DNA from: Flaccisagitta enflata
Taxonomy: Eukaryota
DNA: 64,000 nucleotides
Assembly: GCA_965153355.1 (NCBI GenBank)
Contig: OZ231126.1
Location: 11,470,001-11,534,000, forward strand
Direction: 5' to 3'
Shown here: piece after piece, positions 7,571 to 64,000 of the stretch
Layout: each line of letters opens with the position of its first letter
Numbering within the stretch: position 1 is the first letter of the stretch
Made by a program: the position numbers and the translations under genes
The notes under the pieces: generated by a model
The model's input: the letters and a program-made list of their open reading frames with translations, nothing else
Told to the model about the DNA's origin: nothing
The model's database searches: none

Positions 7571-8149
7571 TACTTAAAAGACAATATTAATTCAAAGAAA
7601 AACCAAAAGATAAGCAAATTTTTAAAAGACAAAGATGCAAAAAGTCTTGTTCACTATCAACTAAAAAAAAACTTGTGCAGATTGACACACATACACAGGC
7701 GCTCTTGCCATGGCTGCCTCCCCGTGGCTGATCATGGTCATGCTCAACTGGAGATGCTCAACATGCTCAATGCTCATTTGCACATTGAAACACACACACA
7801 TGTACATCCAAACCTGTCATAGCTGATTTGCCGCAGCTGATCATGGTCATGCCCATTTACACACACACACACACACACACACACACACACACACACACAC
7901 ACACACACACACACACACACACACACACACACACACACACACACACACACACACACACACACACACACACACACACACACACACACACACACACACACAC
8001 ACACACACACACACACACACACACACACACACACACACACACACACACACACACAGAAACACACACATCCAAACTTGACATGGCAGCCTCTCCATTGCTG
8101 ATCATGGTCATGCTCATTTGCATACTGATACACACACACACAATTGTAC

Positions 8150-8375
8150 CTGCCATGGCTGCTTCTCCATTGCTGATCATGGTCATGCTCATTTGCGTGA
8201 CCATCTTGGGGGTTTCCGGGGGAGCTGCGTTGGTGTAGAGGTATTTCTTGATGCATTGTTGTTGAGGGTAGCAAATGTAGCAATGGCCTTGGTCGTCGGT
8301 CACGATGCCCGTGGGCTCGGTCAACCCGGCCTCGCCTTTAATCGTTGAGATCAGGGGACCTTCGTAATTGTAAAC
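8150..8375 (-). CDS. NHL-repeat protein exon: VYNYEGPLISTIKGEAGLTEPTGIVTDDQGHCYICYPQQQCIKKYLY...AAMA
   Basis: cag acceptor at 8378-8376, 226 nt (phase 0 to phase 1), G|gtacaa donor. LTEPTGIVTDDQGHCYI resembles a final NHL blade. Confidence 0.85.
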
Positions 8376-9093
8376 CTGCGCAGCGTCAACGAGAAAATAC
8401 AAGGGGATAAATGATCATTTCACATAAAGCATTTGTTATAGGAAAGATTCATTATTAATCGCACAGCTACAGTAAGTAGGGGTTCACTAGACACCATAGA
8501 TAACTGTGATGGACTGATGGTTCCAGATTAACCACTATTGCCAGCGCCAGAGGATTTCAATCTTGAAATAGATGGGGTTGAGAAGTACCATTTTCCAACT
8601 TTCCACATGCAGTTGAATCCCGCAATAACGGATGCTAAGAGACTTACAAATATTTTTCATGTGAATTTACTAGGTTGCCAATTTAGGAGATAAAAGGAAA
8701 TAACATAAAAGGACCAAACTTTGATATCCATTTGTCATAAGCAGATTTCCGTTACTGTCAGATCTGTTATAACGGGGTGTAACTGTGTGTCAGTTTTGAA
8801 TGTAGCAAAGAATATGGATTCACTTGCCATAGACATATGTATGCGAATTTTGCGAGAGAAAAAAAAAAAGAGTGAAAGAAGGTTCAAAGACCTCCTTCCG
8901 GATGCTGTCCAAACGGGCAATGTTGTTGTTTTCTCTGCTCCTCTCCCCTCTTATGAAATTTCAGTGCGAAATATGATCGGTTCTTGGCAATCTCAGGGAA
9001 AATACAAAGAAATGGACTAAGAAAAAAAAATAGTTATTTCTCCCCTGGAGCTCATGGATGGAATTTTCCTCCCATTTCATGTTTTCTGAACTT

Positions 9094-9363
9094 GGGGCGT
9101 GTTTCTAGTGAGCGCCAAAAACGCGTTTGTTCCCATGAAACGCGATAACAGCGTGAACACATATCAAAAAATTTCAACTGTCCCACGATGGAGTGAGCGA
9201 AGTGAGTGAGCGAGCCCGTGAATGGAGTGAGCGAGCGAAGCCTGCGTAGCAAAGCGGAGCGCTGCGGAGCGAGTGAGCGGAGTGAGCGGTGCGAGCGAAC
9301 GAACGTAGCGAGCGACCGAGTGGCCCGTTCAAAACGCGATTGTCTATGACTAGAAACGTCCCC
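9094..9363. mobile_element. PIF/Harbinger-like MITE with internal (GAGT/GAGC)n
   Basis: GGGGCGTGTTTCTAGT / ACTAGAAACGTCCCC ends; a related internal sequence recurs near 28850-28900. Confidence 0.6.
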
Positions 9364-61600: not shown

Positions 61601-61715
61601 GCGACCTGTTATTATCTCTACGAGCACTATCCCCATAGCCGAACCAAGACCCCCTCATAATGCTCCCAAATCAAGACTCCCTCCCCCTCAAATTCAATAA
61701 GGGGCCTTCATATAC

Positions 61716-61829
61716 CTGTTTTAAGAGCCAGCCTTCTTTATCCGGATTGAAGAAGGTGAAAACGAGATCATCACTGTCATCCAAGGGAATCTTAAAGGGC
61801 TCCTTCTTGATACTTTCGTACAAATCCAC
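61716..61829 (-). CDS. CYTH1: Cytohesin (ARF-GEF) exon, Sec7 C-terminus/linker/PH start: [38 protein letters not shown]
   Basis: catctcag acceptor, CAG|gtatat donor, 114 nt; hallmark EPFKIP..D..TFFNPD.EGWLLK motif. Confidence 0.95.
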
Positions 61830-64000
61830 CTGAGATGTGGGAGGGGGAAAGAAATATAAAAGAGATAAGAATATTACTGTCATTCAAGGGAATCTTAAAG
61901 GGCTCCTTCTTGATACTTTTGTACCAATCCACCCGGCAAAGAAACAAGGGCAAGCGGTTGGTGGGGGGGGGCGGAAAATAAAATTGAAACTGCCTCAAAT
62001 TCACCTTAATGCCGGTCGTTCATTATACGAATTTTGTATACTTCTCTCAATTTATATGTTCTTTTGTCAATCGGTTTGTTGGTCGGTACTTTGATTACCT
62101 TTAAGCAAAATAATCGCTATGGATACGGTGAAGCTAACGCAGGGTTCTGAAGCAGGGTTCTGCAGTATGATTAGTGAGGTATGAATATAGTCCAAATCTC
62201 AAAGATAGTCTGATGTTGTGGGGAAACCGATTGCTAAAGAATGACAAAGAATGAATTTGTTGGTCGATTTCTTGCTTTGATATTCTCTGTTGTTAGCCGT
62301 TAAATGCAGATAAAAAGAAAACGACTTTTTTGTTTTGGTTTGAAGAGGAATTTGTTTGATGATTTCATCATTCGCGCATCAATAAAAAAATTACTAGTTT
62401 CCCATCGTCAGGTCTTCTTGGGTGGCTGATTTTGCTTACACACGCTCTACCTAATCTCATTTTATCACTGTTTTTCCTTTTCTTCTTCTTCCTCTCTTTT
62501 TTTTTTTCTTTTTCTTTTTCTTTTTCTTTTTCTTTTTCTTTTTCTTTTTCTTTTTCTTTTTCTTTTTTTTTTCTTTTTCTTTTTCTTTTTCTTTTTCTTC
62601 CTCATATTCTTTCTTCTTCTTCTTCTTCTTCATCTTCTTCTTCTTCTTCTTCTTCTTCTTCTTCTTCTCCTTCTTCTTCTTCTTCTTCTTCTTCTTCTTC
62701 TTCTTCTTCTTCTTCTTCTTCTTCTTCTTCTTCTTCTTCTTCTTCTTCTTCTTCTTCTTCTTCTTTTTCTTCTTCTTTTGGCTTTCTTTCCAAGAAGAAC
62801 TGAAACCAAAAATCGTAAAATGCAAGCAGAAGAACCTCGAAAAAGTTTATCAACAAACTCTCCAAAATCCAGGGTCTTAAAAAGGTCTCTTTTAGGGGTT
62901 GAAGGACCTGTCCCTCTCTGAGTGGTGGAGGGTCACAAGGGGGTGTCTGTCTTAAGTAGGGGTGGCCCTCTTGAGTGCGGCAGCAGCGGCACTGGTAATA
63001 GTAAGAGGGGCTCTTAGAATTAGGTTATCGCGCAATCAGAAATAGAAAATCAACAAAAAATGAGCCAGATTGTTAGAGCTTTTGGTTGAAGTAGAGAGAG
63101 AGAGAGAGAGAGAGAGAGAAAGAGAGACCGGCGGACAATGAAGCAAACAAGCGAGATACAGAAACAGAGGCGGCTTTTTGGGCGCCCAAAGGGTTTCACC
63201 TTTCCCAGAAATTGAGGGCTTGAAAGCTTTAAAAAAAGAAAGAAAAAGAAAGAAAGAAATAAAAAGGTAGGAAAGGAAGAGAAAAAGAAAAAGAAATAAA
63301 TTTAAAAAGAAAAAAAAGAGAAAGTGAAAATTGAAAAGAAAGAAAGAAAGAAAGAAAAAAAGAAAGAAAGAAAAGAGACAACTTTCTTCGCTTCTAGAGT
63401 TAACAGAATTTCGTCCCGTTTCCGCATTGAGGCTTGGATATCTCATAAATTTTACACGATAGCAATTGTGGGCCGTTCCAGATAAAGCGTAACCACAGGT
63501 AATGGTGATTAGTATCAATCCCCTGCGACAAGTGGGTCTAAAGAGATCACGAAAATATCTCGATTTTTTCCAAAAATGTAACCAAAGACAGAAATAGAGA
63601 CCAAATTTGCAAACCACTTTAAAAGATTCCCTGGTTGCATTTTGGAAAAGGATAAAGATATTTTGGGTGATGGTCATAAATAGTCACGAGGTTCTCATTA
63701 CAAAAAGTCGCGTATGATTCAAAATAGCTTCTCAAAATGCGTGACTAGTTTTTTACAGATTGTAAACTGTAATATACAAATCAGATTTTTGAAAGACAAT
63801 TCTCGTAGGTGTTGATGAGGGTGTCGAGGCCGAACGATGTATAGACTGCCATAATGAAAAGAAAACAGAAAGAAACAAAAATAGTAACAAGTAAAAGAGG
63901 AGGAAAAGAAAGAAAGAAAGAAAGAAAGAAAGAAAGAAAGAAAGAAAGAAAGAAAGAAAGAAAGAAATAAGCACATCTACAAATCAACAAACCAAGAGAG

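Follow-up and report, generated by a model that had tools for sequence, protein, structure and literature searches.

Why should the edges of exons recur, as degenerate copies, in the introns that adjoin them? This question is raised by a 64-kb stretch of metazoan DNA with a G+C content of about 40% (Flaccisagitta enflata, contig OZ231126.1, positions 11,470,001 to 11,534,000; referred to as the window in the following, with coordinates counted from its first letter). It carries exons of a cytohesin gene on the minus strand, of a coiled-coil gene that is nested on the plus strand in a long cytohesin intron, and of an NHL-repeat gene on the minus strand. At seven exon-intron junctions in these three genes, the exon edge is followed or preceded on the intron side by such copies, which we call echoes. 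We consider it probable, at roughly 0.6, that these echoes are boundary-spanning minisatellites produced by ordinary local tandem duplication, and that their excess at junctions stems from filters acting on the duplications rather than from any targeting of splice sites.

The analysis is based on 12 definable exons with 22 junctions. Only the four cytohesin exons were placed by homology, by tblastn with each of 10 arthropod cytohesins, and their splice sites were then read off the sequence; all junctions of the coiled-coil gene as well as the NHL donor at 8150 were defined by open frame and consensus splice sites only. For each junction, the 50 adjoining exon bases were locally aligned with the adjacent 1 kb of intron, so that the maximum score is 50. 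Seven junctions stand out: the end of one NHL exon (8150, minus strand, score 40) and the start of another (10064, minus strand, 29), the start of the last cytohesin exon (41993, minus strand, 42), the end of the cytohesin PH exon (57619, minus strand, 28), the start of a further cytohesin exon (61829, minus strand, 44), and the start of one coiled-coil exon (49363, plus strand, 38) and the end of the next (50245, plus strand, 28). The remaining 15 junctions score 8–16. Among shuffled queries of comparable complexity, none of 3758 reached 28, which rules out chance similarity. When whole exons were compared with the window by BLAST, the copied parts were found to be exon edges only and to lie in the adjacent intron only; all other exon matches were to microsatellites. 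A first-pass annotation, made from the letters of this DNA, had described seven such echoes in 15 exons. Inspection of the sequence finds the described echo in each of its seven ranges, with the scores given above, and its count of exons has to be lowered to the 12 that can be defined.

All seven echoes are head-to-tail local copies of a unit that comprises the exon edge, the splice site and the intron edge. The units measure 48 to about 160 bp, the self-BLAST offsets of the seven arrays are 86–341 bp, and the echoes are 69–94% identical to the exon-bearing copy. At the three cytohesin junctions, whose exons were placed by homology, the terminal unit contains the exon edge together with the authentic site; in the coiled-coil and NHL arrays, the corresponding exon edge is the one predicted from open frames and consensus sites. 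The clearest array is a minisatellite of 48-bp units at the donor of a coiled-coil exon (50216–50660, plus strand), with about 10 units by our count and 8.0 copies at 85% matches according to Tandem Repeats Finder (TRF). Its first unit consists of the exon end and the donor, and eight further units (50265–50628) and a degenerate ninth follow as echoes. GT is kept in eight of the nine echo donors, and four of these are identical to the authentic 9-mer TAG|GTGAGT.

The other arrays have longer units. At the NHL exon end, three echoes lie at 8050–8121, 7771–7858 and 7676–7746 (minus strand), interleaved with an (AC)104 tract at 7859–8067, and two of the three keep GT. Four aligned echoes of the NHL exon start with its acceptor are found at 10118–10196, 10413–10483, 10484–10585 and 10699–10772 (minus strand; AG kept in three of four); a 24/24 copy of the authentic intron tail at 10378–10401 is part of a duplicated block within this array, which is interrupted by an inserted dispersed element bearing (ACGG)n at about 10197–10377. 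The array at the start of the last cytohesin exon has two echoes of exon start, polypyrimidine tract and acceptor (42099–42193 and 42251–42348, minus strand), the first of which has TG in place of AG while the second retains AG, and by eye a weak third copy near 42440–42490; the units across 42099–42490 each include an (ATTC)n tract. At the end of the PH exon, one echo (57433–57539, minus strand) keeps the donor CAG|GTAACA and a second (57389–57431) is truncated before it, the period being about 110–128 bp. Two junctions carry single echoes. The one at the coiled-coil exon start (49196–49330, plus strand) is a 136-bp tandem duplication of about 31 nt of intron tail and about 101 nt of exon start, in which 83 of 93 exon positions and 20 of 28 intron positions are identical and the AG is shifted by one base. 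The one at the cytohesin exon start (61868–61933, minus strand) belongs to a 103-bp tandem duplication that includes 65 nt of exon start (60/66 identical) and has lost the acceptor AG; the intron tail upstream of it shows weak homology, scoring 10.5, where shuffled sequences average 5.0 and reach 11.0 at most.

Across the arrays, the exon contributes about 27–100 nt to a unit and the intron about 18–95 nt. Since both shares vary this widely, the units have no constant layout relative to the splice site. The observation that copies always lie on the intron side, which had already been made from the letters and which BLAST bears out for all exon copies, follows from the geometry of duplication itself: when a junction is duplicated in tandem, one copy stays attached to the body of the exon and all others come to lie in the intron.

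In the three cytohesin cases, the direction of copying can be read from the proteins. The copied segments encode residues that are conserved in the cytohesins of other animals, and therefore the exon is the source and the echo the copy; for the coiled-coil and NHL arrays, we infer the same direction. How the arrays grew is best seen in the 48-bp array, which is a higher-order repeat of 96-bp A/B dimers: the exon-bearing unit u0 and the echo units u3 and u5 are 94–96% alike, u2 and u4 are 94% alike, and a G>A change common to u3, u5 and u7 is not found in the exon copy. Together with the duplicated block in the NHL acceptor array, the dimers and the shared change indicate that arrays grow by copying their own units and not by copying the exon again. 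Word depth over the 48-bp array is 106–280, as opposed to 85–90 in its flanks; being only 1.2–3 times that of the flanks, it marks a local array of few copies and not a dispersed family.

The decay of the copies shows no special treatment of the splice sites. Of 19 aligned echoes, 14 have an intact splice dinucleotide, a fraction that agrees with the 0.66–0.78 expected from the per-site identity of 0.81–0.88. GT and AG are neither lost nor kept preferentially in comparison with neighboring bases. It is correct that some echoes have mutated dinucleotides while others keep them, as first reported, while the proposed check of whether they are mutated more than their neighbors has a negative outcome. 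A decay with distance from the exon, reported at the same time, is weak, as a clear loss of similarity is confined to the outermost units. In their exon-derived parts, the echoes share 745 of 844 positions (88.3%) with the exon-bearing copy, and in their intron-derived parts 461 of 569 (81.0%), a pattern to be expected if the exon copy were frozen by selection and the rest were drifting.

These properties can be accommodated by a simple course of events. The same slippage, template-switch and unequal-exchange activity that would account for the 26% of the window that is tandem repeat may generate a unit that by chance takes in the edge of an exon together with its splice site, and once two copies exist, the array could expand and contract by copying its own units. 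The gene would continue to work, as one copy stays contiguous with the exon body, namely the donor farthest upstream or the acceptor farthest downstream, and the other copies would become intronic pseudo-sites that decay neutrally. Several filters may then enrich junctions among the duplications that we can still see. Duplications that fall wholly within exons would be purged; an exon copy frozen by selection would keep the similarity detectable for longer; and the thin rims of introns may be older and better protected than deep introns, which would consist mostly of younger microsatellite and transposon filler. Moreover, if the introns were once short, nearly any tolerated duplication of 50–160 bp that touched an intron would have had to straddle a junction.

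How strong is the excess that these filters have to explain? For comparison, we used anchors from across the window, counted as positive when a copy scoring at least 28 lies within 1 kb on a given side, with a 3-mer diversity of at least 0.5 for the complex set. Window-wide, 8.4% of complex anchors are positive (n = 3758), and 19% of all anchors when microsatellites are included (n = 4944). With the background doubled to 16.7% for the frozen exon copy, the count among 22 junctions yields p = 0.06, and with a background of 19% it yields p = 0.11; for the 30 junctions of the earlier count, p is 0.010 at 8.4% and 0.23 at 16.7%. The local background is uneven, ranging from 0% to 26% between sub-regions: positive anchors number 0/413 at 1.1–7.6 kb, 0/109 at 7.6–10.8 kb outside the echoes, 165/624 at 10.8–23 kb, 0/162 at 23–25 kb, 84/1104 at 25–41.9 kb, and 15/1094 at 41.9–62 kb outside the echoes. 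The frequency test is also a post hoc one, as the pattern was seen before it was tested, in one window picked from very many and with about 20 independent events. According to self-BLAST, the window contains 20 regions of local direct repeats; seven are the echo arrays, and 13 touch no definable exon. These numbers bear on the first of two readings offered at the outset, a general process of short tandem duplication that survives only when it straddles a junction. The process itself, with junction-straddling copies that lengthen introns, fits the data; the restriction of survival to junctions does not, given the 13 regions away from exons. The second, a junction-targeted mechanism producing decoy sites, receives no support from the anatomy, that is, from the internal growth of the arrays, the variable exon share and the neutral loss of GT and AG.

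Several observations nevertheless weigh against an explanation by filters. With the undoubled background, seven positive junctions out of 22 compare with 8.4% of complex anchors (binomial p = 0.0016), and in the deep introns of the cytohesin and coiled-coil genes, only 1.4% of anchors are positive (15/1094), compared with 5 of the 16 junctions there. The rate at junctions is therefore not that of deep introns, an equality that the first-pass annotation had named as the sign of a process without targeting. In five of the seven arrays, the copies number at least three, and the intron side by itself suffices to detect the array; as these five are visible without the exon copy, the frozen-copy effect helps only the two single echoes. 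By a rough hand estimate, about 7–8% of tolerated random 100-bp duplications in the 20-kb span of these two genes should straddle a junction, and yet 5 of the approximately 6–9 detectable arrays there do so; a binomial calculated by hand gives about 1.5e-4 (n = 8, p = 0.08), or about 4e-3 at p = 0.16. Finally, the argument of old rims and young filler is one that we only infer. Junctions are favored in this window, and filters can explain much of the excess.

One may also ask whether short tandem duplication is truly concentrated at junctions here, be it by a mutational bias or by the retention of pseudo-site arrays, for instance as U1 platforms, and is one of the chief ways in which introns grow and splice sites turn over. 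We regard this as doubtful. Of its two forms, the mutational one holds that tandem duplications arise preferentially at exon-intron junctions, possibly because forks stall and templates are switched at the microsatellites and at the polypyrimidine or A-rich tracts found 5–30 nt from many splice sites, or through exon-positioned chromatin, so that junction echoes would be a main route of intron growth in this lineage. It could draw on the excess just described, both over the window-wide 8.4% and over the 1.4% of deep introns, and on the microsatellite inside the unit in three of seven arrays (AC, ATTC and poly-A). It could also draw on a further comparison: a tandem repeat begins within 30 nt on the intron side at 8 of 20 junctions between 8150 and 61829, compared with 8.3% of random intronic positions (p = 1.2e-4). 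The repeats that hug junctions are mostly microsatellites, such as a poly-A tract that begins 5 nt past the donor at 57619, an (AAC)n tract 15 nt past the donor at 44834, and (ATTC)n tracts at a distance of 19 nt beyond the donor at 53902 and of 27 nt ahead of the acceptor at 41993. However, the excess comes from a post hoc test on a single selected window with about 20 arrays and a background of 0–26%, the breakpoints are variable and the arrays grow internally. We know of no DNA-level mechanism that recognizes splice junctions, and we judge a bias of this kind unlikely. In its selective form, the idea would be that echo sites are kept for a role in RNA processing, as pseudo-5' splice sites that bind the U1 small nuclear ribonucleoprotein (snRNP), as decoys that adjust which splice site is chosen, or as alternative sites in use. 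The over-representation at junctions and the GT kept in eight of nine donors of the 48-bp array, four of them exact, would agree with this, but the overall retention of 14 in 19 equals the neutral expectation, several echoes are without any remaining splice site, and the products would be poor: the first echo donor of the 48-bp array would read GAT AGG TGA, an immediate stop, the echo donor at 57619 would add 128 nt and shift the frame, and the echo acceptor at 49363 would add 136 nt with a frameshift and an in-frame stop. As far as can be told from the sequence, the echo sites would give no usable mRNA. A selected function appears improbable.

It is still less credible, to the point of being very improbable, that the extra copies are mis-assembled repeats absent from the DNA of the animal. 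In run X1, the short-read unitigs are interrupted where the 48-bp array begins, one of them ending at 50221, and the same window contains a suspiciously perfect 632-nt inverted repeat. On the other hand, the copies have diverged to 69–94% identity and are not the identical units of a collapse or expansion, the word depth of the 48-bp array fits a local array of few copies, and an open reading frame (ORF) of an independent contig in the European Nucleotide Archive (ENA), P0392, runs from the NHL exon end into the first echo. While P0392 contains the first NHL echo, another ENA contig ORF, P0121, apparently does not, both being known only as protein translations of short contigs; in both, the AC tract is far shorter than in the window. 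These differences look like the variation of a variable number tandem repeat (VNTR). A 22-letter loose end of an X3 contig within the 48-bp array was not found in the window and is uninformative on allele length.

Two other origins were considered and rejected. The gaining of introns through tandem duplication, as in the Rogers model, does not fit because the introns are old and long, with lengths of 1.5 to about 12 kb compared with units of 48–160 bp. A dispersed element, such as a transposon or introner carrying splice sites, is discounted because the exon edges recur only in the adjacent intron, and because the depth of the 48-bp array, 106–280, compares with up to 152,486 for an adjoining high-copy element.

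The preferred reading, boundary-spanning minisatellites, also places the arrays in known company, contrary to the initial statement that no standard feature class exists for them. In the part of the literature that describes the minisatellite of human F7 intron 7 (IVS7), the first unit of a 37-bp VNTR spans the boundary of exon 7, so that the authentic donor is followed by identical pseudo-donors, which remain silent, since the choice falls on the most upstream site (Borensztajn et al., 2006; PMC1557585). The 48-bp array at 50216–50660 has the layout described there, with head-to-tail units, a boundary-spanning first unit and near-identical pseudo-sites. The two differ in extent, since we find seven junctions in three genes within 64 kb, four of them at acceptors and most with longer units (about 100–160 bp) that are more decayed; and while the silence of the pseudo-sites was demonstrated in F7, the sites in the window are known from sequence. 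In the poly-A RNA run X24, about 6% of which was read, no read at all was placed on 49950–53630. Likewise, for human genes that lie in segmental duplications, internal tandem repeats have been catalogued at exon-intron boundaries, where 162 alignments led to 27 curated intron modifications; they are reported to overlap the boundaries, to vary in copy number and to provide cryptic sites that can create or move introns (De Grassi and Ciccarelli, 2009; PMC2812944). As presented in that report, these are recent differences between paralogs with transcript support, whereas the genes described here are single-copy within the window and known from DNA, with nothing in them to indicate that a junction has moved. 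Lastly, the origin of new or shifted introns from tandem duplication has been discussed for Drosophila (2010; PMC2891723). The model outlined there also involves a duplication that contains splice signals and leaves the mature mRNA unchanged; it starts, however, from a duplicated exonic AGGT and yields a new intron of the size of the duplication, whereas in the window pre-existing kilobase introns gain pseudo-sites and length. A limited literature search, which is weak evidence of absence, brought up no description of a genome in which a large share of the junctions carries such arrays. Each array belongs to a known kind, and if anything here is new, it is how densely the arrays occur at junctions.

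What would follow depends on whether this density extends beyond the window. If the excess at junctions holds genome-wide, it would point to an unrecognized mutational bias or to the selective use of pseudo-sites; if it fails, the echoes would be an ordinary by-product of an extremely repeat-prone genome. Each array amounts to a natural experiment of the F7 type, with up to nine near-identical splice sites of which the exon-contiguous one is presumably used. A genome in which a third of the junctions bear such arrays would therefore be a natural library of competing identical splice sites, in which the positional choice of splice sites could be tested at many loci, the inflation of introns by tandem duplication measured, and the turnover of splice sites watched as it occurs.

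We now turn to the genes that carry the junctions. The cytohesin exons, all on the minus strand, comprise the linker between the Sec7 and PH domains (61716–61829; acceptor tctcag|GTGGAT, donor AACAG|gtatat), a PH-domain exon (57619–57738; acceptor cctcag|GGAGGA, donor CTGCAG|GTAACA), a further exon supported by tblastn and splice sites (53902–54035), and the last coding exon with the end of the PH domain and a poly-Q-rich tail (41348–41993; identified by tblastn and translation, with the stop codon at 41350–41348). Past the PH domain, the last exon encodes about 40 glutamines from a (CAA)n/(TTG)38 microsatellite at 41753–41866 and a long Ser/Pro-rich tail, both of which are missing from the arthropod cytohesins that were compared.

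The five exons of the coiled-coil gene, on the plus strand, lie at 44526–44834, 48112–48592, 49363–49510 (acceptor ttctcag|GTTGCG, donor AAACG|gtgagg), 49987–50245 (ending in GATAG|GTGAGT, with an alternative acceptor at 50004) and 51817 to about 52475, each being delimited by its open frame and consensus sites. The gene had been labeled FHAD1-like, a name that could not be confirmed: no relative turned up when 8000 candidates were compared by a word-index search, Pfam returned sub-threshold coiled-coil matches only, and the Atlas returned generic coiled-coil clusters, so that we refer to it as a generic coiled-coil protein. A comparison of a coiled-coil exon with metagenome contigs gave 467 pattern matches, none of which was confirmed.

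Two exons on the minus strand belong to the NHL-repeat gene. The one at 9945–10064 has the acceptor ttcag|GTCAGG at 10064 and the donor CAG|GTACTT at 9945, and its Pfam NHL match (E = 0.0014) is below the cut-off; the one at 8150–8376 has the acceptor gcgcag|GTTTAC at 8376 and the putative donor CAG|GTACAA with the exon end at 8150, and it has 990 HMMER matches to NHL-repeat proteins. P0122, a 93% identical ORF of another ENA contig, departs from the window six codons before this putative donor (8150–8170, minus strand), which makes the exon end at 8150 the least certain of the junctions. Judging from this divergence, the position of the exon end or of the donor may differ between close relatives. 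A single exon of 1.6 kb (23071–24706, minus strand), which ends in a donor-like site, is ABCA5-like and corresponds to the C-terminal half of the protein, residues 1053–1597 of a 1615-residue relative, at 73% identity; no exon for residues 1–1052 was found within the 64-kb window.

Words nearly identical to those of the window occur in the DNA runs of one organism as well as in marine metagenomes and metatranscriptomes, which marks the source as a marine planktonic animal; the searches with cytohesin and the ABCA5-like protein brought up no close relative with a name. The window as a whole is rich in repeats. TRF lists 140 rows at a score of 50, and at a score of 40, tandem repeats account for 26.4% of all bases, with 13.4% at periods of up to 6 and 14.3% at periods of at least 10. 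The region 10800–23000 consists of tandem repeats to 53% and is the source of most arrays away from junctions; it contains a 47-bp unit repeated 27 times (11204–12492), a (CAA)210 tract (12719–13348), units of 10, 11, 14 and 20 bp (13770–16113) and a purine-rich array of 54/158-bp units (20724–21385). A 21-bp minisatellite family occurs at 3–199, 22905–22995 and 61083–61447, where a switch to the reverse complement at 61363 makes the array palindromic. The dispersed (ACGG)n/(TCCG)n element that is inserted in the NHL acceptor array has similar tracts at 9507–9603, 22222–22268, 33938–33977, 39872–39923 and 40087–40129.

The window also contains two inverted structures. The perfect (100%) 632-nt inverted repeat has its arms at 42524–43155 and 45061–45692, 1905 nt apart, and encloses the exon 44526–44834; its right arm is flanked by (AAC)n tracts at 44850–45062 and 45691–45910. 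Two origins come into question, a very recent inverted duplication and a fold-back artifact of the assembly. The high-copy element at about 50565–51671 is an inverted pair whose open frames, 50666–50866 and 51289–51615, mirror each other. Its word depth reaches 152,486 in a run of the organism's own DNA, compared with about 85 in the flanks, and marine metagenome and metatranscriptome contigs over 49950–53630 matched almost only this element (50.6–51.6 kb).

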